Shown here piece after piece: positions 8,926 to 33,288 of a DNA stretch of 40,000 bases (within the stretch, counting starts at the first letter, position 1; every line of letters starts with the position of its first letter). The notes beneath the pieces are model-generated. The model saw only the letters and a program-made list of their open reading frames with translations. It did not search any database and was not told the DNA's origin. Position numbers and translations under genes: made by a program. This stretch comes from Halobacterium hubeiense (GTDB lineage Archaea; Halobacteriota; Halobacteria; Halobacteriales; Halobacteriaceae). The stretch covers positions 52,626-92,625 of the forward strand of contig NZ_LN831304.1 in the NCBI RefSeq assembly GCF_001488575.1, written 5' to 3'.

Positions 8926-9393
8926 CTACCGTTCTCGGGCGATCGACGATGACTCTGAAGGGAGTTGTGGGCCGCCACAGACCGCATTGAAGTACACTTG
9001 TTCCGCGTGAATCGAACGGTTCTCTACGTCGGCTAACAGACATACCTCCTCCCCCTGATGATTCTGCAAAGCACTCATATCGAACTGACCAAAGCAGGCG
9101 AGCGTTGATTCGTTCAGCACGGTTGCCTTGTAACACCGCTGTACGTCCGTGTGGTTCGTTATTGTGACCGGAACAACGGTGTCGTTGCCCTGTTCAACAT
9201 ACACCGTGTCGGCTTCAACGCGGGCAGCTGTTCCGGACAGCCAGAACGACGCAGACTCTAGCGGTTGGACGGTGTTTTCTGACGTAGTGTGGGGTGTCTG
9301 TGCTGGTGGTGACGTCGGGGAGGCCACGGAGCCAATACAGCCCGATAGAAGGACGAGTGTTACGAGGGCGAACGTTTGGAGTCGAGGTCGCAT
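8926..9393 (-). CDS. Secreted lipoprotein, hypothetical
   Basis: The N-terminus MRPRLQTFALVTLVLLSGC carries a lipobox. GC content looks lower than in the neighbouring genes. Confidence 0.6.
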   Translation of the reverse strand: MRPRLQTFALVTLVLLSGCIGSVASPTSPPAQTPHTTSENTVQPLESASFWLSGTAARVEADTVYVEQGNDTVVPVTITNHTDVQRCYKATVLNESTLACFGQFDMSALQNHQGEEVCLLADVENRSIHAEQVYFNAVCGGPQLPSESSSIARER

Positions 9394-24036: not shown

Positions 24037-24067
24037 GTTTCTGCTGCGCCTCTGAGGGGTGCGGCGC
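24037..24067 (+). promoter_or_regulatory. T-box/hairpin module i, upstream of the ardC-like gene
   Basis: GTTTCTGCT-GCGCC-tctGAGGGGTGC-GGCGC, followed by the GCAGTCGC box. Confidence 0.65.
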
Positions 24068-24112
24068 GATCTGAACAGACGCAGTCGCCGTGAACTCGAT
24101 TCGGTGAACACG

Positions 24113-25054
24113 ATGTCCACGACCAGAGACTCGTCGGTCTCCTTCGACCAGACCGACACGCGTTCAGACGAGATGAACAGTACCATCGAACAGTGGATCG
24201 ACGACCTCGTCGCCGGCGTCGACGACGCGCAGGCCAGCGAAGAGTTCCAGGAGTGGCTCGACGTCCAGAGTCGTTTCCACGACTACTCCTACCGGAACAC
24301 GCTCCTCATCAAGCGGCAGTGTTCCGAGGCGAGCCGGGTGGCGGGCTACCGGACGTGGCAGGAGGAGTTCGACCGCCACGTCACGGAGGGTGAGTCGGCC
24401 ATCTGGATCTGGGCGCCGATCATCACCACGCAGTGCCCGGAGTGCGAGAATTCGCCGAGCTACCACGAAGAGAGCGACTGTGGGTACGACGAGACGCCGC
24501 CTGAAGAGTGGTCCGAGGGCTTGGTCGGGTTCAAGCCCGCGCCGGTGTTCGACGTCTCCCAGACCGAAGGCGATCCGCTTCCCGATCTGGACACGGAAGC
24601 GACCGGGGACGCCGGCGACCTCGTCGAACAGTTGACTGTCGCCGCTGACGACCTCGGCGTGACGGTGCGAATCGTTCCAGCCGAGGAGTGGACCCACGGC
24701 GAGGCGAAGGGCATCTGCGAGCAGCTGAGTCTCGTCGACGTTCAGCCGCTCGTCGAGGTGCGTGATCGGGAGAACGAGGCCGACCTTGCGCGGACGCTGA
24801 TTCACGAGTACGCACACGCCCTGCTCCACTTCGATGTCGACGACGACACCGAGCGGGCGAAACGCGAAGTCGAGGCCGAAGCCGTCGCGTACGTCGTCGG
24901 GCGCTACTGCGGGCTCGACACGAGCGGGTCAGCGTTCTACCTCGCTGCGTGGGAGTCGGACGATCCCGAGATCGTTCGCGAGCGGCTCGGACGGATTAGT
25001 CGGACAGCAGAAGAGATTATCGACGCGCTCGGAGACAACTTATCACACCATTAG
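24113..25054 (+). CDS. ardC: ArdC-like protein (N-terminal ssDNA-binding ArdC-N/DUF1738 domain plus C-terminal HExxH metalloprotease-like domain)
   Basis: YSYRNTLLI..GYRTWQEEFDRHVTEGESAIWIWAP is ArdC-N-like. LIHEYAHALLH is an HExxH motif. There is an inserted CPEC zinc motif. Confidence 0.75.
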   Translation: MSTTRDSSVSFDQTDTRSDEMNSTIEQWIDDLVAGVDDAQASEEFQEWLDVQSRFHDYSYRNTLLIKRQCSEASRVAGYRTWQEEFDRHVTEGESAIWIWAPIITTQCPECENSPSYHEESDCGYDETPPEEWSEGLVGFKPAPVFDVSQTEGDPLPDLDTEATGDAGDLVEQLTVAADDLGVTVRIVPAEEWTHGEAKGICEQLSLVDVQPLVEVRDRENEADLARTLIHEYAHALLHFDVDDDTERAKREVEAEAVAYVVGRYCGLDTSGSAFYLAAWESDDPEIVRERLGRISRTAEEIIDALGDNLSHH

Positions 25055-25108: not shown

Positions 25109-25453
25109 TCACTCCTCAAGTCGGCGACGCCGCTCTTCGAACTCCTCCTCGGAGAGCTCCCCGCGAGCGTATCGGGAGCGAAGCGTCGATAATGCAGTAT
25201 CCGTCTGTGATTGTTCGGGAGCCGGAGCCCGCCCGCGTGTGTAGACCCCATAGCCGACGATGAACACCACACTCAGTAGGAGTAGCGACCAGAGGAGAGG
25301 CCCCCAGCCGAAGCCACCCATTCCGCCGCCCATCTCGCCCATCCCACCCGAGTGACCACCGCCCATTTGAGCAGTGACTGTCCCGGTAACTGCGAACACG
25401 AGGGCGGACCCAGCGGTACTACGAACGAGTGCTGTGGCGAACTTGGAAATCAT
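25109..25453 (-). CDS. SHOCT-domain membrane protein with a Gly/Met-rich segment
   Basis: The C-terminus [24 protein letters not shown] is SHOCT-like. It also has [22 protein letters not shown] and a transmembrane helix. The start overlaps the trxB stop. Confidence 0.7.
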
Positions 25454-26495
25454 GTCACGGATCGTTCCGGACTGGCGGTTTCAGTAGCGGTCGATTCGTC
25501 TGCGTTCTGCAGCGACTCGAGGAACGCTTCGGCGTCGAGAGCGGCCATGCTCCCGGTGCCCGCAGACGTGATCGCCTGCCGGTAGCGGGGGTCAGCAACG
25601 TCGCCAGCAGCGAACACCCCATCGACGGCCGTCTGGGCCGTGGGCCGACCAGCGTCGTCGGTCTGCGTGAAGATGTAGCCACTCTCGTCTCGTTCGACGC
25701 CGGTCCTCTCGAGGAACCGCGTGTTCGGCGTGTGGCCGACGGCGTAGAACACCCCGCCGACATCGACGGTCTCTCGCTCGATGTCGAACCGGACTCGGCT
25801 TTCTCTCTGGGATACCCCTCGGGATGTGAGACGAGCGTGGCGCCGGTAACGCCCTCCGCTTGGGAGCCGTGGATGGCTTCGAGTTCCGTGTTCCAGCGGA
25901 ACTGGACGTCGTCGTGGTCGCGAGCACGGTCGGCCATGATCTCGGACGCACGCAGTTCCTCACGCCGGTGGACGACCGTCACTGAGTCGGCGAACTTCGC
26001 GAGGAACAACGCTTCTTCCATCGCGCTGTCGCCGCCGCCGACGACGAGGACGTCGTCGCCGCGGTGGAACGCGCCGTCACAGGTCGCACACGTCGATAGT
26101 CCCTGGCCCATCAGTTCGTCTTCGTTTTCGGCACCGACCCAGCGCGCGCTCGCGCCGGTCGCGACGATCAGCGACCGCGTGTAGATCGTGTCGCCGTTCG
26201 ATAGCGATAGCTCCAGCGGCTGGCCGTCCAAATCCGCGTCCTCGATGCGACCGTGTTCGAACTGGGCGCCGAACTGCTTGGCCTGCTCTTTGCCGCGCTG
26301 GACGAGGTCCATGCCGCCGACGCCGTCGGGGAAGCCGAGGTAGTTCTCGACGTCGGTCGTCAGGGTGAGCTGGCCGCCCGGCTCGTCGCCCTCGAGAACG
26401 AGTGGGTCGAGGTCGGCTCGCGCAGCGTAGACGGCTGCCGAGAGGCCTGCGATCCCCGACCCGGCGATGACGAGGTCGTGGATGTCCTCAGTCAT
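25450..26495 (-). pseudogene. trxB: Thioredoxin-disulfide reductase (trxB) interrupted by a 1-nt frameshift near 25786..25796
   Basis: The N-terminal frame (track 25455..26495) is TrxB-like up to ..[14 protein letters not shown] (GSGIAG, CATCDG, VVGGGDSAMEEA) and then becomes Arg/Ser/Pro junk. The C-terminal TrxB part [30 protein letters not shown] continues in the other frame (track 25450..25752). Confidence 0.85.
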
Positions 26496-26858
26496 TTACT
26501 CGGTGTAGGTCTCGATGAGCGTTCGGAGTTGGTCTTCGCCCTGGAGACCGACGACTTCCTCGACCTGTTCGCCGTCGGCGAACAGGATCAGCGTGGGAAC
26601 GCCCTGAACGCCGTACGCGGAGGCGAGTTGCTGGTTGGCGTCAACGTCGACTTTTGCGACGGTCGCGTCGGTCTCGGCGGCGAGTGTCTCGACGGTCGGT
26701 TCGAGCATCTGGCACGGCCCACACCAGTCGGCGTAGAAGTCCGTGAGGACGACGTCGTTCTCTGCGACGACCTCGTCGAGTTGGGACTGGCCGTCGACGT
26801 GGAGCGGTTCGTTCGTGGACGCAGTGCCAGCGCCGGATGCAGTATCAGTTGCCATCAC
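26496..26858 (-). CDS. trxA: Thioredoxin
   Basis: It has the WCGPC active site and a typical thioredoxin fold length. It sits immediately upstream of trxB. Confidence 0.9.
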   Translation of the reverse strand: MMATDTASGAGTASTNEPLHVDGQSQLDEVVAENDVVLTDFYADWCGPCQMLEPTVETLAAETDATVAKVDVDANQQLASAYGVQGVPTLILFADGEQVEEVVGLQGEDQLRTLIETYTE

Positions 26859-26903
26859 CAGTACGTATGCATCAGCGCTAATTAAGGGCTTTGGAGAATA
26901 TAT

Positions 26904-26913
26904 ACAATACTAT
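26904..26913 (+). promoter_or_regulatory. ACAATACTAT box, copy 1, in the trxA promoter region, followed by CCAATACAG (26914..26922)
   Basis: This exact 10-mer occurs 3 times in the window, always in intergenic spacers of the sulfur island. Confidence 0.5.
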
Positions 26914-27017
26914 CCAATACAGGCTGTCGGAAGGAAAGAGTGGTCCCAACGCTGTAGCACGTGGGGATCTGCTTCCCGAGAAGTATCAGAACCCGAGGGA
27001 GAGAGAAGAGGGGAAGG

Positions 27018-27431
27018 TTAGCTTTCGGCGGCCGGGGCCGCAGTCTCGGACTGTTCGTACTTGGTTTCGAACTCCTGGATGAGCTGGCCCATCTTCGCGT
27101 ACCAGTCGTTGAGCAGCCGCTGCATGTCGTCGGCGATCTTCGAGGGGTCCGTCGGCGAGTAGACGTGGTAGTAGCCGCCCTGGTCGTAGTTGATCTGGTT
27201 CTTCTCGATGAACCCGGTCTGGAGCAGGCGCTGGATAGCCCGGTAGGCGGTCGAGCGTTCGCGGTCGACTGCGTCGGCGATCTCGTCGACGGTCAGCGGT
27301 TCTTCGGCCTCGACGAGCGCCTGGAAGCACTCCTTGTCGAGCTCTTTGAGGCCGTGGAAGCACTCCAGCAGCCCCTCGCACTCCATGTCACTGCGGAGTT
27401 GTTCAGACATCGAATCTGGCATTAGTATCAC
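27018..27431 (-). CDS. TrmB/ArsR-like HTH transcriptional regulator with an N-terminal Cys cluster
   Basis: PLTVDEIADAVDRERSTAYRAIQRLLQTGFIEK is an HTH. The N-terminus contains MECEGLLECFHGLKELDKEC (3 Cys). Confidence 0.75.
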   Translation of the reverse strand: MILMPDSMSEQLRSDMECEGLLECFHGLKELDKECFQALVEAEEPLTVDEIADAVDRERSTAYRAIQRLLQTGFIEKNQINYDQGGYYHVYSPTDPSKIADDMQRLLNDWYAKMGQLIQEFETKYEQSETAAPAAES

Positions 27432-27530
27432 TAACTCGTATGGGCTGTGCGGTTATAAGATTTTGTATGGATTGCACAATTTCGTGCTATAGTTGGCTGA
27501 GAACCGATGATACGACTCCGCGGAAGAGAA

Positions 27531-28526
27531 TTACGTCGCCGAAAGGCGGCACCAGAAGCCAGTGTTGTCGTCGCGAAGCTGGCACACCGCAGCCAACAGG
27601 ATCGCACCACTCACGACGACGGTCGCGCCGAAGATGAGCACGATACTCACGGTGTTGAGTACGCCAATGTCCAAGGCGGTGCCGACGCGTTTGGCGGCGA
27701 CAGCGACGCTACCTACGAGTAGCATCGTCGCGAAGTACCCCTTGATGTCGTCCTCGTCGACGAGGTTCGAGACACCCGCGCCGATGCGCGCTCCGAGCGC
27801 ACTCCCGGCGAGCAACGTCGCCACGACCGGAATCGCGACGAACCCGTCCCGTGCGTAGACGAACGCGCCGAACGCCCCCGAGATCGTAATCTGGAGGATG
27901 TCCGTCCCGACGGCAATCGCGGCCGGGACACCCAGTCCGTACATCATCGCAGGCATCAGCAGGAAGCCGCCACCGACGCCGAGGAGCCCGGAGAGGACGC
28001 CGACGACCAGCCCGATGCCGAAGATGATACTCGCGGACACGCGGACGTCACCGCGGAGCGTCACCATCGGCGGGATTTCCAGTGCCTGTACGCGCTCTGA
28101 GAGGTCGACGCTCGTCGAGGACGCCCCCGTAGCGCGGGCGTCCCGGAGCGTGAATACGCCAACTGTTGCCAGCAGGCCGACGTACGCGACGCTGATGACG
28201 AGGTCGGCGTTCCCTGCCGCGTGGAGCGCGTCGACGACGCGCTTGCCGACCTCGATGCCGAGCGTCATCGCGACGGTCATGATGACTGCGAGTTTGTAGT
28301 CGACGTGGCCGTGGTCGCGGTGGCGGAGCGCGCCGATGACGCTCGTCCCGAACACGAACGCGAGCCCGCTACCGACGGCGACCCGCGACGGGTAGCCCAT
28401 CACGAGCAGGGCGGGCGTGACGAGGAACGACCCGCCCATCCCGAAGAAGCCGAACAGAATGCCGATGAGCAGCCCGAACCCGACGAAGAAGCCGACGAGC
28501 AGCAGACTCATCCCGAGCAGTTCCAC
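27531..28526 (-). CDS. TauE/SafE family sulfite/anion exporter
   Basis: A polytopic membrane protein with the duplicated GxGGG motifs (FGMGGSFL, LLGVGGGFLLMP) typical of TauE. The start may instead be ATG 28511. Confidence 0.8.
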   Translation of the reverse strand: MELLGMSLLLVGFFVGFGLLIGILFGFFGMGGSFLVTPALLVMGYPSRVAVGSGLAFVFGTSVIGALRHRDHGHVDYKLAVIMTVAMTLGIEVGKRVVDALHAAGNADLVISVAYVGLLATVGVFTLRDARATGASSTSVDLSERVQALEIPPMVTLRGDVRVSASIIFGIGLVVGVLSGLLGVGGGFLLMPAMMYGLGVPAAIAVGTDILQITISGAFGAFVYARDGFVAIPVVATLLAGSALGARIGAGVSNLVDEDDIKGYFATMLLVGSVAVAAKRVGTALDIGVLNTVSIVLIFGATVVVSGAILLAAVCQLRDDNTGFWCRLSAT

Positions 28527-28529
28527 AGC

Positions 28530-28679
28530 TTACTCACCTCCGAGCGCTCGCTTCACGTTCGGACCGAGCGCCTTCGTAACGACGCCGTAGCCGACGTGAA
28601 GGGCCATCGCTTCGAGCAACACGGCGCCGATTAGTCCGGCTGCTTGTACGGTCGACGGGAGCGACAGCGTATCGATCAT
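28530..28679 (-). CDS. Small membrane protein (49 aa) upstream of tauE, below the ORF-track cutoff
   Basis: Hand translation gives MIDTLSLPSTVQAAGLIGAVLLEAMALHVGYGVVTKALGPNVKRALGGE. Its stop lies 3 nt before the tauE GTG. Confidence 0.45.
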   Translation of the reverse strand: MIDTLSLPSTVQAAGLIGAVLLEAMALHVGYGVVTKALGPNVKRALGGE

Positions 28680-28779
28680 CGCCGCTGTCCACCAACCTGA
28701 GACGGGTTTGTGCGAATCATACTTTTCTGCACACGGAACCGTAACCGGCAGTGTGTATTAACGCTTTTGGGACGACTAC

Positions 28780-28789
28780 ACAATACTAT
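28780..28789 (+). promoter_or_regulatory. ACAATACTAT box, copy 2, upstream of the small-ORF/tauE unit
   Basis: Exact 10-mer in the 28680..28881 spacer. Confidence 0.5.
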
Positions 28790-28881
28790 TTGCGGTCGTA
28801 TTCCATAACTTATCGATGACCAATCACACCCCCACCCGAATCGCGCAACAGCCCCATGATGTCGGCCTAGACTGGGGCTAC

Positions 28882-30057
28882 CTACAGAAATACAAGACCT
28901 ATCGCATACGCAAGCGCGAACGAGAGCGTGAACGATCCTGCCCAGGCACCCACCGTCACACCGATTTTCCGGGCATCCACTGCTTCCCAACCGCCGACAG
29001 CGGCGCCACTCCCGATAATGGCGCTGACGACGATCTCGTTGAACGAGACCGGAACGCCAAGCAGCACTGCCAGCTGTGCGATCAGGAACGACGGCACGAG
29101 CGCCGAGATGGAGCGCCGCGGCCCCAGCGATGAGTAGTCCTGGGCGAGCGACTTGATCATCCGCGGCGCACCCGTCCAAGACCCGACGAGCATCCCCAAA
29201 CCGCCACCGACGAGCACGGTGAACGTCGAGACCATCCCGACCTCGTCGAGCAACGGCAGCAGCGGTCCAACGGCGAGCCCGACCTGACTCCCGCCCGCAG
29301 AGAACGCCACGAGCGACCCGAGCGCCAGCAACACCCGACGCAGGCCGCCGCGTTCGTCGCGGCGGACGTCCCACCAGACGACTGCTGCGACGGCCAGCGC
29401 TGCGAGGCCAGTAATCCCGACCGCCGACACGAGTCCGTCGATTGCCAGCACCTGCTGTCCGACACCGCGGACGGTGCCTGCCGCGCTCCCCGTACCGAGG
29501 AAGCTGAACTGGACGTTCATGAGAACCGCTCCGACGAGCCCGGTGAGCACGGGGATACTGTACCGTTCGGGGACGTCGGGGCGCGGGAGCAGGCTTGCGA
29601 TGGTGAACGCGATGCCGCCGCCGACGAACGGCGTCAACACCCAGACGGCGGCGATCTGCTGGTACTTCGGCCAGACCGGCGAGCCGCCCAGCGCGAGGCC
29701 GACGCCGATGACGGCGCCGGTCACCGTGAACGCAGTCGCAATCGGATAGCCGGTCGTGATGCCGACCGCCATCAGCCCCGCACCCAACACGAGTACGAGG
29801 ATGACGCCAGCGATCGGGAGACTGATTCCACCGACGAGGCCGCTCCCGATGGCTTCCGAGACGTTGCCGCCCTGTGTGACGGCGCCGACAAAGCCGAAAA
29901 GACCGACGAGGAGGGCGGCACGCATCGTCGAGATAGCGTTCGCCCCGACGGCAGGGGCATACGGCGTCGCCCCACTTGAGCCGGCGCCGATAACCCACGC
30001 CATGAACAGGCTAGCCAGCGCTGCACCGACGAAGAGGGCGATAAGAGCGGGGTCCAT
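28882..30057 (-). CDS. PiT-family inorganic anion (phosphate/sulfate) transporter
   Basis: This uses the internal ATG 30057 of track ORF 28882..30255. The product MDPALIALFVGAALASLFMAWVIGAGSSGATPYAPAVGANAIS is polytopic. Confidence 0.8.
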   Translation of the reverse strand: MDPALIALFVGAALASLFMAWVIGAGSSGATPYAPAVGANAISTMRAALLVGLFGFVGAVTQGGNVSEAIGSGLVGGISLPIAGVILVLVLGAGLMAVGITTGYPIATAFTVTGAVIGVGLALGGSPVWPKYQQIAAVWVLTPFVGGGIAFTIASLLPRPDVPERYSIPVLTGLVGAVLMNVQFSFLGTGSAAGTVRGVGQQVLAIDGLVSAVGITGLAALAVAAVVWWDVRRDERGGLRRVLLALGSLVAFSAGGSQVGLAVGPLLPLLDEVGMVSTFTVLVGGGLGMLVGSWTGAPRMIKSLAQDYSSLGPRRSISALVPSFLIAQLAVLLGVPVSFNEIVVSAIIGSGAAVGGWEAVDARKIGVTVGAWAGSFTLSFALAYAIGLVFL

Positions 30058-30067
30058 AACCAGTGAG

Positions 30068-30526
30068 TTAGTCTGCGCCCGTCGCGGCGGTGTCACGCGC
30101 CTGGCTGCGGCTCCGCCAGTAGCCCTGGGCGTACGCGCCGAGGAACATCCCGGCGAGCGCCCAGAGAATGGTGATGTTGCCGATGCCGAGGCTCGCGTAG
30201 GCGGCGCCCGGACAGATGCCGGAGAGCCCCCAGCCGACGCCGAAGATGGCGCCACCGATGAGGACGTTCCGGTCGAAGGATTTCAGACGGCGCTCGAAGC
30301 TATCGCCGGTCAGCGGCGCGCGGCCCAACAGCCGCGGCGCGACGAAGAACGTCAACCCCGTCACGGCGGCGCCGCCGAACATCACGAACACCAGCCCGAA
30401 GTCCTCGAACTGGAGGAAGTCGAGGACGACCTCGGGCCGGGCCATCTGGCTGTACGCGAGCCCGAACCCGAAGATGAGGCCGCCGACGAGAACCAACGGC
30501 ATGAACGCGGGATGCCGGTCACTCAT
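30068..30526 (-). CDS. YeeE/YedE family sulfur-compound transporter subunit
   Basis: This uses the internal ATG 30526. It contains GGAIFGVGWGLSGICPG and overlaps the upstream paralog (ATGA). Confidence 0.8.
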   Translation of the reverse strand: MSDRHPAFMPLVLVGGLIFGFGLAYSQMARPEVVLDFLQFEDFGLVFVMFGGAAVTGLTFFVAPRLLGRAPLTGDSFERRLKSFDRNVLIGGAIFGVGWGLSGICPGAAYASLGIGNITILWALAGMFLGAYAQGYWRSRSQARDTAATGAD

Positions 30527-31017
30527 CAGGGGCTCACCCCCAGCGCGGCGACTACTTGTGCGGTCACGATGGCGACGGTGAGGAACGTGAGGACGCCCGC
30601 GATGGACGTCTTCGAGGCTGAGCCGACGCCACAGACGCCGTGGCCGGACGTACAGCCCTTGCCGACGCGCGTGCCGATGCCGACGAAGACGCCGCCGACG
30701 AGCAGTCGCCACGGCTGGACGTCGGTCGTCCACGCGCCGCCCTGGTAGACGACGGCGTAGACGGCCGCGCCGAGGACGATGCCGAGCGTGAACACGAGTC
30801 GCCAGTCCCGGGAGCTGACGTACTGCTGGAAGCGGGACTGGTCGGAGACGTACGACAGCGTCGACTCCAGGAACGTGCTGGCGCCGGCGCTGATGCCGGT
30901 GCCGAGGTAGATGACAGTGACGCCGAGCCCGACCAGCAGCCCGCCGATAGCGTAGCGGCTAATGCCGTTCGGGAACAGCTCGGCGGCGACCTGGAGTGGA
31001 AGTGGGTCGATTACCAT
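30526..31017 (-). CDS. YeeE/YedE family sulfur-compound transporter subunit
   Basis: It contains the GKGCTSGHGVCG motif typical of the YeeE/YedE family. Confidence 0.8.
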   Translation of the reverse strand: MVIDPLPLQVAAELFPNGISRYAIGGLLVGLGVTVIYLGTGISAGASTFLESTLSYVSDQSRFQQYVSSRDWRLVFTLGIVLGAAVYAVVYQGGAWTTDVQPWRLLVGGVFVGIGTRVGKGCTSGHGVCGVGSASKTSIAGVLTFLTVAIVTAQVVAALGVSP

Positions 31018-31025
31018 CGGCGTCG

Positions 31026-32219
31026 TTAGTCACCTGCGAGCGAGTCCTGGCTGGCCGCGCAGTTGTTCGGGCCGAGTTCCAGCGTGAACGCTTCGTCGTC
31101 GTCGACGGCGTTCTGGCCGAGGTTCGTCGCGATGATGTCCTCGTAGTTGGCCGGCCGCGGCGGCATGTCCGAGAGGACCAGGTCGACGAACTCCTGCTCG
31201 TCCATCGTGAGTGCGTCCATCTCCTCGACGAGCTCGCCGATGGGGGCGGTATAGGTGCCATCGGCAGCGGGCTCGGCGGCGTCGCTGGAGTGCGCGCCAC
31301 CGACGAGCGTGTCGTCGGGCAGCGTCAGCACGCGCTCCTGCAGGGACTCGTAGAGCATGCGTGCGGCGTCGGGCGCGCCGTCGTCGCCCTCTTCGAGGTC
31401 GGGGCGGGCGACGCTCTCGATGAACAGTCCGTCGCCGGTCGCGAGCAGGCTGTCGTCGACGAGGTACGAGGTCATCCCGGTCGTGTGGCCGGGCGTGTGG
31501 ATGGCCTCGATGGTGGCGTCGCCGACGTCGAAGGTGTCGCCGTCCGCGGCCGTGGTCAGATCGTCCGCGTACGTGACGCCACGGTCGACAGCAGCCTCGG
31601 GGATGACGCCCTCGACGCCCTCGTCGTCGAGGTCGCGCACGCCCGAGATGTGGTCGGCGTGGATGTGCGTGTCCAGGGCGTACTGCAGGTCGACGCCGAG
31701 GTCGTCGGCGTCGTCGAGGTAGCGGTCGGTGAACGCACGCAACGGATCGATGATTGCGGCTTCGCCATCGTCGTAGAGGAGGTAGCCGAGACAGCCCGAG
31801 GAGGGGCGCTGGTACTGGAGGAGCGCTCCGGCGCCGTCGTAGCCTTCGACTTCGACGGCGTCGTAGATGCTCGCCCAGCCGTTCATGCCGTCTTCGAGGT
31901 GGTCGACGTCGTAGCCGCGCTCCGCAAGCGTGCCCGCGACGAACTCGCTGGCGCCGCCCTTCGCACAGAGGACGGTCACCTCGCGGTTGTCTGGGATCCG
32001 GTCGAGGACGTCCTCGTCGATGTCGTCCTCGAGGAATTCGAAGTACGGGATGTTGATCGACGTGACGTTCTCACCGTCGATGTGCCACTCTTCGTAGTCG
32101 CTGGTCATTCGTGTGTCGAGGAGCGTGACGTCCTCGCCGGCGTCGATACGATCCTTCAGCGTCTCCGGGTCGACGGAGTCCACGTCGATGTCCGGAGTCG
32201 GGAAGTCGTCAGCGTTCAT
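31026..32219 (-). CDS. Rhodanese domain fused to an MBL-fold persulfide-dioxygenase-like hydrolase
   Basis: The N-terminal rhodanese region is VTLLDTR..EWHIDG..VLCAKGGAS. The MBL motif is HIHADHISG. Confidence 0.85.
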   Translation of the reverse strand: MNADDFPTPDIDVDSVDPETLKDRIDAGEDVTLLDTRMTSDYEEWHIDGENVTSINIPYFEFLEDDIDEDVLDRIPDNREVTVLCAKGGASEFVAGTLAERGYDVDHLEDGMNGWASIYDAVEVEGYDGAGALLQYQRPSSGCLGYLLYDDGEAAIIDPLRAFTDRYLDDADDLGVDLQYALDTHIHADHISGVRDLDDEGVEGVIPEAAVDRGVTYADDLTTAADGDTFDVGDATIEAIHTPGHTTGMTSYLVDDSLLATGDGLFIESVARPDLEEGDDGAPDAARMLYESLQERVLTLPDDTLVGGAHSSDAAEPAADGTYTAPIGELVEEMDALTMDEQEFVDLVLSDMPPRPANYEDIIATNLGQNAVDDDEAFTLELGPNNCAASQDSLAGD

Positions 32220-32282
32220 GTTGTGCAGTCGCTTCTACTGGGTGGTCGCACAAAAGCATTTGGATAGTAATTCCATATTTGG

Positions 32283-32292
32283 ACAATACTAT
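32283..32292 (+). promoter_or_regulatory. ACAATACTAT box, copy 3, in the divergent rhodanese-MBL / tusA spacer. It forms the inverted repeat ATAGTA-N17-TACTAT with 32264..32269.
   Basis: Exact 10-mer. A GTATTGT (reverse of ACAATAC) and a second CCAATACAG lie at 32423..32447. Confidence 0.5.
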
Positions 32293-32467
32293 ACTGGGCT
32301 GAATTCCGTTACAACCGGATTAAACTCCCTGAATAGGGGCTATTCCCCATTTGGCGCCTAATTGTGGCTTAGAGTAGTTAGTAGTGTTCACAAGAATCGA
32401 CAATCTTTTACTTGGGTAGGGGGTATTGTGCGATAGCTCCAATACAGACTCACGGAGCAGATAACCA

Positions 32468-32713
32468 ATGAGTGCTGAATTCGACATCACGGAGACGCTC
32501 GACGTCAAAGGCGCATCGTGCCCCATGCCAGTAGTGAAGACGAAGTCCGCCATCGACGACCTCGCCGAGGGTGAAATCCTCGAAGTGCTGGCGACTGACT
32601 CTGGGAGCATGAGCGACATCGACGGCTGGGCGTCCGGCACCGCCGGCGTCGAGCTCGTCGAGCAGGAGGAAGGCGACGACGTGTACAAACACTACGTCCG
32701 CAAGACGGAGTAA
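32468..32713 (+). CDS. tusA: TusA-like sulfurtransferase
   Basis: It has the LDVKGASCPMPVVKTK (CPxP) motif and is 81 aa long. Confidence 0.85.
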   Translation: MSAEFDITETLDVKGASCPMPVVKTKSAIDDLAEGEILEVLATDSGSMSDIDGWASGTAGVELVEQEEGDDVYKHYVRKTE

Positions 32714-32715
32714 CG

Positions 32716-33288
32716 ATGAGCACGGACACACCCGACGCGTCGGCCGACGACGCGCCCTCGCGTGCGGAACTGGCCGCGCGCGTCGACGAACTCGAGGACG
32801 CGCTCGCCGACGCCACCAGCGAGGACGACGCCAAGAAGATGAGCATCATCGCCACGAAGGGGACGCTGGACATGGCGTACCCGCCGCTGATCCTCGCCAG
32901 CACCGCGGCCGCGTTCGGCTACGAGGTGACCGTCTTCCACACGTTCTGGGGGCTGGAAATCCTCCACGAGGAACGCTCGAAGAACCTCAAACTCAGCTCC
33001 GTCGGCAACCCCAACATGCCCGTCCCGAACGCCGTCGCCGCGCTCCCGGGCATGGACCGCGTGACGACGAAGATGATGGAGAAGAAAATCGAGGACAACG
33101 ACACCGCCTCCATCGAGGAACTCATTGAGACGAGCCTCGACATGGGCGTGGAGTTCCAGGCCTGTCAGATGACCATCGACCTGATGGACTACGACGAGGA
33201 CGACTTCTACGACGGCGTCACCACGGGGGTCGGTGCCGCGACAGCCCTCGAGGACATGGCCGACGCCGACATCCAACTCCTTGTGTAA
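32716..33288 (+). CDS. DsrE/DsrF-like family protein
   Basis: It contains [40 protein letters not shown] and sits immediately after tusA. Confidence 0.7.

Follow-up and report, generated by a model that had tools for sequence, protein, structure and literature searches.

Known Regulators of Sulfur and Thiol Genes

To our knowledge, the sensing of reactive sulfur species has been well worked out in bacteria (CstR, BigR, SqrR, FisR) and hardly in archaea, and among the haloarchaea only OxsR, a general oxidant sensor, has been characterised. A candidate system of this kind is discussed here from Halobacterium hubeiense, in a stretch of 40,000 nucleotides (contig NZ_LN831304.1 of assembly GCF_001488575.1, positions 52,626 to 92,625 of the forward strand), which is called the window and to whose own numbering plain coordinates refer. 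The window is part of C3, a replicon of 158 kb with 59% G+C, in a genome of 3.13 Mb whose main chromosome (C1) has 68% G+C. It contains an island of thioredoxin and sulfur-trafficking genes with five promoters, all of which carry the same dyad, GTATTG-N11-CAAWAC; the most likely reader of this dyad is a winged-helix protein encoded in the island itself, the orthologue of HVO_1360 of Haloferax volcanii.

Among the bacterial systems, the cst operon of Staphylococcus aureus (tauE, cstA, cstB and sqr, with the regulator CstR) shares with the island a TauE exporter, a fusion of persulfide dioxygenase (PDO) and rhodanese, sulfurtransferases, a sulfide:quinone oxidoreductase (SQR) and a co-encoded regulator with two cysteines. 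However, CstR is a helical bundle of the CsoR family and not a winged helix, and no CsoR-type match was found for the island regulator in Pfam. The domain order of the PDO fusion is also reversed in the island, where TusA and DsrE2 are separate proteins, thioredoxin genes are included, and the promoters are of the archaeal type, with a transcription factor B (TFB) recognition element (BRE) and a TATA box. Winged-helix repressors that sense persulfides by two cysteines and control a PDO-type enzyme together with a TauE-like membrane protein are represented by BigR-Blh of Xylella and Agrobacterium and by SqrR of Rhodobacter; these proteins belong to the ArsR/SmtB family and have dissimilar operators, whereas the island regulator is a TrmB protein by score. 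As for the sulfide oxidation unit of mitochondria and bacteria (SQR, ETHE1/PDO and rhodanese), SQR-like, ETHE1-like and rhodanese domains of predicted enzymes are all encoded on C3 under the same DNA site, with the difference that the SQR-like gene stands outside the window and pairs with genes for DUF1641 and TusA. The likeness to cst and bigR clusters, first proposed in a preliminary description of the locus, is borne out by the ETHE1/PDO-type metallo-beta-lactamase (MBL) domain, the rhodanese cysteine, the CPxP motif of TusA, the TauE protein and the SQR-like gene 11 kb away.

In archaea, SurR of Pyrococcus furiosus is a redox-switched, sulfur-responsive regulator, and the position of its site relative to BRE and TATA decides between activation and repression. 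It is unrelated to the island regulator, has two winged helix-turn-helix (wHTH) domains, a CxxC motif and a GTTn3AAC site, and it serves the hydrogenase and sulfur-reduction genes of Thermococcales.

The preliminary description knew of no characterised archaeal equivalent of the regulator, a statement that needs amending, as OxsR (HVO_2970) of Haloferax volcanii is a characterised relative (PMC9426492). Both are single winged-helix proteins of the TrmB/arCOG02242 type, of ~125-135 aa, that keep a cysteine in the N-terminal helix and are associated with genes for thioredoxin and thiol relays. However, they share 28-29% identity, and OxsR has one cysteine in place of the C-x5-C pair and third cysteine of the island protein. 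Furthermore, the OxsR site, CGGnCGnGCG, contrasts with the A+T-rich dyad, and OxsR is concerned with low-molecular-weight thiol synthesis instead of sulfur trafficking. As a candidate for the island site, the CG motif of OxsR was discarded: the 40 kb contain 5 matches against 10 expected, none of them in an island promoter.

HVO_1360 (UniProt D4GXQ1), also from Haloferax volcanii, is 69% identical to the island regulator, has C15, C21 and C32, and is encoded with TauE-DUF7512 directly upstream; it differs in that it adjoins a zinc-finger gene and a two-component system, not trxA, and in that the box of its TauE promoter is degenerate. It has been mentioned only as a possible partner of OxsR (PMC9426492). 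A literature search for this regulon, HVO_1361 and arCOG02242, incomplete in its coverage, found no paper on the system.

A Dyad Shared by the Island Promoters

The first indication of a common element was the 10-mer ACAATACTAT, which had been reported three times in promoter spacers of the island. This was confirmed: the copies lie at 26904, 28780 and 32283, all on the + strand, against 0.01 expected, and none of 100 shuffles reached three. Each copy lies upstream of a minus-strand gene, namely trxA, the 49-aa DUF7512 open reading frame (ORF) followed by TauE, and the rhodanese-MBL fusion (Rhd-MBL), so that in gene sense the box reads ATAGTATTGT. The entire genome has four copies, and none of the reversed control pattern. 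The sole copy outside the island, at C1:1929848, is in an A+T-rich stretch, has neither a BRE/TATA partner nor a thiol gene nearby, and was taken as chance or unrelated. A second string, CCAATACAG, had been counted twice; its copy at 32439 is real, but the window contains three, the additional one at 9332 being surrounded by G+C-rich sequence and looking like chance.

The 10-mer is a real site, although it must be amended in one respect: it is the left, strong half of a larger dyad of ~23-29 bp with the consensus (ATA)GTATTG-N11-CAAWAC(TAT). The evidence comes from the spacing of the pattern TATTG-Nk-CAA[ATG]A in 41 orthologous loci of 40 haloarchaeal genomes (406 kb in total), where k = 11 accounts for 93 matches and any other value between 4 and 20 for 0-2. 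The genome of Halobacterium hubeiense peaks at k = 11 too, with 8 sites, six of which are at thiol or sulfur promoters of C3 and one at a DUF302 gene divergent from a chromosomal copy of the regulator gene. In the window, TATTG-N11-CAAWA has three matches (0.01 expected). The dyad stands in all five promoters of the island, those of trxA-trxB, the regulator gene, DUF7512-TauE, Rhd-MBL/YeeE/PiT and tusA-dsrE2; thus, the box assigned earlier to the island spacers is indeed shared by them, and their number rises to five, since the promoter of the regulator gene has a degenerate copy.

Orthologous promoters were aligned for 20 genomes at first and for 20 more later. Across the 41 loci the sequence of the box and its distance to the start codons are kept, whereas the flanks drift: the core TAGTATTGT carries 1.66-1.78 bits per column, and the 25 nt on its 5' side 0.3-0.5. 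The degenerate form RRTATTGY is found in sense orientation and at the expected distance in 76 of the 89 trxA, Rhd-MBL, TauE and tusA promoters. Conversely, 77 of its 133 matches fall within the expected promoter windows, which cover 0.6% of the strand positions and for which 0.84 matches were expected. The loci are mutually related and such counts are therefore not independent events; still, the conserved box stands out against the divergent flanks as a clear footprint.

Further sites were located by scanning the genome with a matrix and inspecting the matches; they stand at trxA3, at the TusA2/SQR-like/DUF1641 operon, at the second regulator copy and its neighbour trxA2, at a DsbA-like gene, at the chromosomal Rhd-MBL/TusA/DsrE2 genes and at a DJ-1/PfpI gene. 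The proteins of those paralogous loci that keep the site have 40-73% identity. The other high-scoring matrix matches of the genome were in A+T-rich stretches of other replicons, with no promoter partner. In this genome and 40 others, the box is almost confined to thiol and sulfur promoters. It is not a generic strong TATA/BRE, a possibility that had been named among those that would overturn the proposal.

Chance, or the generic A+T-rich sequence of promoters, might also produce such repeats, as haloarchaeal intergenic DNA is A+T-rich and the bare 8-mer AGTATTGT, with 22 copies genome-wide, lies only a little above permuted 8-mers of matched composition (median 12). This explanation is effectively refuted by the promoter footprint and the N11 spacing counts, together with the shuffle tests, the fixed distances to the start codons and the conservation across genera despite divergent flanks.

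Anatomy of the Five Promoters

All TATA, BRE and transcription-start positions given below are predictions from archaeal promoter rules; a scan for sigma-70 promoters and intrinsic terminators was set aside as uninformative for an archaeon. At trxA (minus strand) the predicted TATA box, CTTAATT (26880-26886), lies 22 nt before the start codon and is kept in 15 orthologous promoters. The predicted operator, O-trxA, reads ATAGTATTG-N11-CAAAGC (26888-26913, minus strand), with its right half at the BRE position, and is accompanied by a second, direct copy of the box, GTATTGG, at 26914-26922. From the start of the box to the start codon there are 54 nt in 13 of 15 orthologues, with 1.66 bits per column in the box against 0.49 in the 5' flank, and RRTATTGY stands at the trxA distance in 21 of 25 trxA promoters.

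The promoter of the regulator gene (27453-27482, minus strand) has a degenerate predicted operator, AAATTG-N11-CAAAAT (27460-27482), and immediately after it the TATA box CTTATAA (27453-27459). The string ATTGTG-N-ACAAAAG-TCTTTTAA is kept in 21 orthologous regulator promoters, including those of the chromosomal paralogue and of HVO_1360.

The DUF7512-TauE promoter (28756-28789, minus strand) has the predicted operator ATAGTATTG-N11-CAAAAG at 28764-28789, an exact match to TATTG-N11-CAAWA whose right half is again at the BRE position, and the TATA box CGTTAATA at 28756-28763. Over 17 orthologues its box scores 1.78 bits per column and the flank 0.36, and the box is present in 22 of 26 promoters. 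The leader of the DUF7512-TauE transcript, ~50-75 nt long (GCAGAAA..ATGA.., 28680-28760 on the minus strand), is itself conserved in the orthologues, and in several genera it includes an inverted half-site, CACAATACT; it may serve as another operator or encode a very short upstream ORF.

In the Rhd-MBL promoter (32250-32292, minus strand) the predicted operator is a 29-bp imperfect palindrome, ATAGTATTG-N11-AATTACTAT (32264-32292), followed by GCAAATG and the TATA-like CTTTTGT (32250-32256), so that the dyad abuts the BRE/TATA-like block. The arrangement ATAGTA-N17-TACTAT, noticed earlier at 32264-32292, is real and forms the outer part of this palindrome. The distance from the start of the box to the ATG is 72 nt in 12 of 13 orthologues, and the box has 1.69 bits per column against 0.32 in the flank. 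The chromosomal paralogue of Rhd-MBL has GGTATTGT at unchanged spacing.

The tusA-dsrE2 promoter (32405-32447, + strand) is arranged differently, with the TATA box CTTTTAC at 32405-32411 and, 11 nt on, GTATTG-N11-CAATAC (32423-32445). The reverse half GTATTGT, reported earlier at 32423, does exist, and with CCAATACAG at 32439 it makes up this dyad, which is the best palindrome of the five and spans the predicted transcription start. RRTATTGTG is fixed 11 nt past the TATA box in 19 genomes, and the box occurs in 20 of 20 tusA promoters. As this element is probably partly transcribed, and its arms can pair (GUAUUG...CAAUAC; 91.7% of cells paired), it might act as an RNA hairpin in the 5' leader and not as a DNA operator. 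This is very improbable, and the hairpin was rejected for lack of covariation: not one compensatory change was seen, pairing is lost in 9 of the 10 variant cells, and the loop is as conserved as the stem. In addition, the same box stands upstream of TATA, where it is not transcribed, in three other promoters.

The Regulator

The regulator gene occupies 27018-27422 on the minus strand and encodes a 134-aa, single-domain winged-helix protein of the TrmB/arCOG02242 type with three cysteines, C15, C21 and C32. The cysteines had been recognised in the preliminary description, which placed the start at 27431; that GTG is not conserved in the orthologues, and therefore the start is most likely the ATG at 27422. 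Gene identities were assigned by Pfam, structural relatives by PDB and further families by NCBIfam. The protein matches TrmB (PF01978) with 62.8 bits, against a cut-off of 25.6, and HTH_20 with 26.9 bits, just below the 27-bit cut-off. Its best structural match is 3R0A (MM_1094; E 9e-10, residues 15-123), and Sto12a (2D1H) and AbfR2 (6CMV) were found as well. Its best NCBIfam match is the Sta1 activator family, with 69.7 bits and below the 80-bit cut-off, and the database names of its homologues are all generic.

One of the sampled genomes (G028) has two relatives of the regulator, 69% and 28-29% identical, whose sequences equal those of HVO_1360 and OxsR, respectively, in Fig. S7 of PMC9426492; thus, the window regulator is the orthologue of HVO_1360. 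The latter has been placed in arCOG02242 as an uncharacterised OxsR paralogue with C15, C21 and C32 (PMC9426492). In the BLASTP alignment of the regulator with OxsR, LLECFHGL pairs with VLACVFGI, which puts C21 opposite the functional C24 of OxsR. Among 118 family representatives (50% clusters), C15 is kept in 80 and C21 in 77, far above the 21 that keep C32, so that C-x5-C is the hallmark of the family.

The regulator was found in 294 of 301 sampled Halobacteria (~97%, E<=1e-10), a Halobacterium representative being WP_010890426.1, and at nearly all of the 40 loci box-bearing promoters surround or adjoin its gene. The paralogue with 54% identity, whose promoters have the same box, shows no change in the recognition helix (ERSTAYR). 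In five genomes without the regulator only OxsR-like matches were found; these genomes have no island-type Rhd-MBL genes, and no box was seen upstream of the distant homologues.

The dyad could, on the other hand, be a real cis-element that is read by another transcription factor, or by a variant of TFB or of the TATA-binding protein (TBP), while the neighbouring regulator has other targets. Haloarchaea have many TFB and TBP paralogues, the right half-site sits at the place of the BRE, and the regulator is tied to the site by guilt by association only. However, the left half is 17 nt further upstream than the BRE position, past the known TFB contacts, and the whole tusA dyad is downstream of TATA. 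Moreover, site and regulator co-occur across 40 genomes and in two paralogous regulator-trxA pairs, and they are absent together, all of which makes a different reader improbable.

Proposed Mode of Action

From the sequence evidence we infer, with moderate confidence, that the dyad is bound by the HVO_1360-type regulator of the island as a dimer, which would repress these promoters, its own included, and would be switched through its cysteines. A regulator dimer would occupy the dyad in all five promoters. At trxA, DUF7512-TauE and the regulator gene the site would cover the BRE position, and at tusA it would lie between TATA and the predicted start; a protein bound over the BRE or the start would most likely block TFB or RNA polymerase. 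Repression, autorepression included, is for this reason the most likely mode, and is regarded as fairly probable; the repressor proposed in the preliminary description fits these site positions. Upon a rise in reactive sulfur species or other thiol oxidants, the C15-x5-C21 pair in the N-terminal helix may become oxidised or form a disulfide or polysulfide bridge from one subunit to the other, and either event would change DNA binding and so switch the regulon. Thiol oxidation or persulfidation of C15 and C21 is the probable signal. The genes under the site speak rather for reactive sulfur species, but general disulfide stress would be equally compatible with the trx genes.

The same protein at the same site may instead be an activator, or have a dual function like OxsR and SurR, in which case it would bring in TFB/TBP from its sites upstream of TATA (those of trxA, TauE and Rhd-MBL) and repress only from the site over the tusA start. 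In favour of this, the left half keeps a fixed phase ahead of the core promoter: the BRE-like block follows it after 8 nt in five promoters and after 19 nt in both Rhd-MBL promoters, a difference of one helical turn. OxsR activates from sites upstream of BRE/TATA (PMC9426492), and the Sta1 family that gave the best, if subthreshold, NCBIfam match (69.7 bits, cut-off 80) is one of activators. Activation is nevertheless rather unlikely: once the right half at N11 is included, the site covers the BRE position itself, and it would be odd for tusA-dsrE2 to be regulated in the opposite sense to the rest of one functional island. The reading of the box as an upstream activating site, placed 8 or 19 nt ahead of that block, was dropped as the leading model after the N11 spacing test, which shows that the 'BRE-like' block is the second half-site.

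Several points weigh against repression by the island regulator. In several promoters the right half-site, CAAAAC, falls on the A-rich BRE position, so that its conservation there could partly be that of any promoter; it is clearly apart from the BRE only at tusA and Rhd-MBL. The half-site centres are separated by ~17 bp, an uncommon distance for a simple wHTH dimer. The TauE promoter of Haloferax has a degenerate left half (TGGTCTTGT), and the support drawn from orthologous loci comes from counts that are not independent, the loci being interrelated. An AlphaFold2 monomer model of the regulator, built from a shallow alignment of 30 sequences, was poor (predicted local distance difference test, pLDDT, 52; predicted template modelling score, pTM, 0.34) and was not used. 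Finally, DNA binding by OxsR, the only relative that has been characterised, is stronger in the oxidised state, and OxsR also acts as an activator, so that a CstR-like release upon modification is not a given.

A broader proposal is more tentative, and somewhat doubtful. The HVO_1360-type C-x5-C regulators may be the persulfide or reactive-sulfur sensors of Halobacteria, the first described in Archaea, built on a TrmB/Lrs14 scaffold unrelated to CstR, BigR, SqrR and FisR. A di- or polysulfide bridge between C15 and C21 of different subunits would make them leave the 23-bp operator, and the class-wide regulon would join sulfide oxidation (SQR, PDO, TauE, TusA, DsrE2, YeeE) to thioredoxin.

The result is a testable regulon, with a defined candidate operator (GTATTG-N11-CAAWAC), a named candidate protein and a coherent target set, all of which are available in two genetically tractable models, Haloferax volcanii (HVO_1360) and Halobacterium salinarum NRC-1 (pNRC100/pNRC200). 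It gives a candidate function to the uncharacterised OxsR paralogue and would explain the presence of thioredoxin genes alongside those for sulfur trafficking on the megaplasmids of haloarchaea. For haloarchaeal genetics, it further provides a compact candidate set of inducible promoters and operators.

Genes of the Island

By predicted function, the island joins sulfide/persulfide oxidation and sulfur trafficking (Rhd-PDO, the YeeE halves, PiT, TauE/DUF7512, TusA and DsrE2) with the thioredoxin system (trxA, trxB), and the gene calls of the preliminary description were upheld by Pfam. The gene for thioredoxin, trxA (26496-26858, minus strand; WCGPC motif; Pfam Thioredoxin, 96.7 bits), abuts trxB, which makes an operon likely. 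The thioredoxin reductase gene trxB (25455-26495, minus strand) was taken from the ORF list, and tblastn gave 85-96% identity to orthologues that come next after trxA. It is frameshifted near 25780, from where the N-terminal frame runs into nonsense, and the true C-terminus (..VFAAGDV..) is in an ORF at 25450-25752. The orthologues directly after trxA are intact; the window trxB either is a pseudogene or reflects an error of sequencing. Another trxB, with 56% identity, is on the chromosome at C1:1444617-1445318. The passage from a mobile-element-like region to the sulfur island is marked by an ArdC-like gene (24059-25054, + strand; antirestriction/ssDNA-binding type, HExxH), which ends 400 bp from trxB.

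On the other side of the regulator gene, TauE (27531-28526, minus strand; PF01925, 149 bits) is a predicted TauE/SafE-family anion exporter of the sulfite or sulfonate type. The gene immediately upstream is always that of DUF7512 (28530-28679, minus strand; 72 bits), a single-pass membrane protein of 49 aa that is conserved in the orthologues and whose pNRC100 counterpart is WP_010904017.1.

The Rhd-MBL operon is also on the minus strand, with gaps of 8-10 nt between its genes. It begins with the rhodanese-MBL fusion (31026-32219; Pfam Rhodanese and Lactamase_B), a predicted persulfide dioxygenase/sulfurtransferase. In PDB, its MBL domain is closest to ETHE1-type persulfide dioxygenases (2GCU, E 7e-23; 4CHL) and to PDO-rhodanese fusions (3TP9, 3R2U, 5VE3); the metal-site motif HxHxDH is present as THIHADH, and the rhodanese loop CAKGGAS keeps the active-site cysteine. 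Two YeeE/YedE-type half transporters follow at 30068-31017 (30526-31017 and 30068-30526; Pfam Sulf_transp and DUF6691), with a weak NCBIfam match to the thiosulfate transporter TsuA. The last gene encodes a PiT/PHO4-family anion transporter (28882-30057; PHO4, 154.7 bits).

Divergent from this operon are tusA (32468-32713, + strand), for a TusA-family sulfur carrier with a CPMP (CPxP) motif (77.3 bits), and dsrE2 (32716-33288, + strand), for a DsrE2-like sulfur carrier that scores 182.8 bits with Pfam DrsE_2 and 166.6 bits with NCBIfam DsrE2, the latter being below the 210-bit cut-off.

Related Loci in the Genome

A second sulfur cluster stands just past the right end of the window, at C3:92998-97187, and comprises a class-V aminotransferase/cysteine-desulfurase-like gene, trxA3, DUF1641, an SQR-like flavoprotein gene and TusA2, with the dyad at trxA3 (94393) and upstream of TusA2 (96506). 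The SQR-like gene, which matches human sulfide:quinone oxidoreductase with E 2e-37, is 11 kb from the island and under the same DNA site; no such gene is within the island. A third thiol module, at C3:100985-104836, consists of a membrane protein, a Tat-signal DsbA-like oxidoreductase (CPFC), an acidic protein, trxA2 and the second regulator copy. This copy is 54% identical, keeps C-x5-C, and is accompanied by DUF302 and methyltransferase genes that are both transcribed divergently.

The same pair of DUF302 and methyltransferase genes is found beside the chromosomal regulator copy (C1:1278066-1278476), around which there are no island genes; the DUF302 gene there has the site. Another chromosomal locus, C1:2475904-2479003, is a copy of DsrE2-TusA | Rhd-MBL-YeeE-YeeE with 61-73% protein identity, without the regulator, TauE, PiT or trxA, and both of its promoters keep the GGTATTG box at equal spacing.

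The Island in Other Haloarchaea

The island is syntenic across genera, both on plasmids and on chromosomes. Its nucleotide identity to plasmids from Haloarcula, Halobacterium and Salinirubellus is ~90%, a sign of transfer between megaplasmids, and 93 PLSDB plasmids match it, pNRC100 and pNRC200 of Halobacterium salinarum NRC-1 among them. In Haloferax volcanii (the HVO_1359-1361 region), the regulator gene is found between TauE-DUF7512 and a CPxCG zinc-finger gene with a response regulator, and there is no trxA. In the 14.5 kb of pNRC100, a relaxed pattern returned exactly five sites, one for each promoter. The pNRC100 island (42316-56823) has three extra genes between TauE and PiT, for an MFS transporter, a rhodanese-like protein and a second HTH protein; as other genera have insertions at the TauE/PiT junction too, this junction is a variable hot spot.

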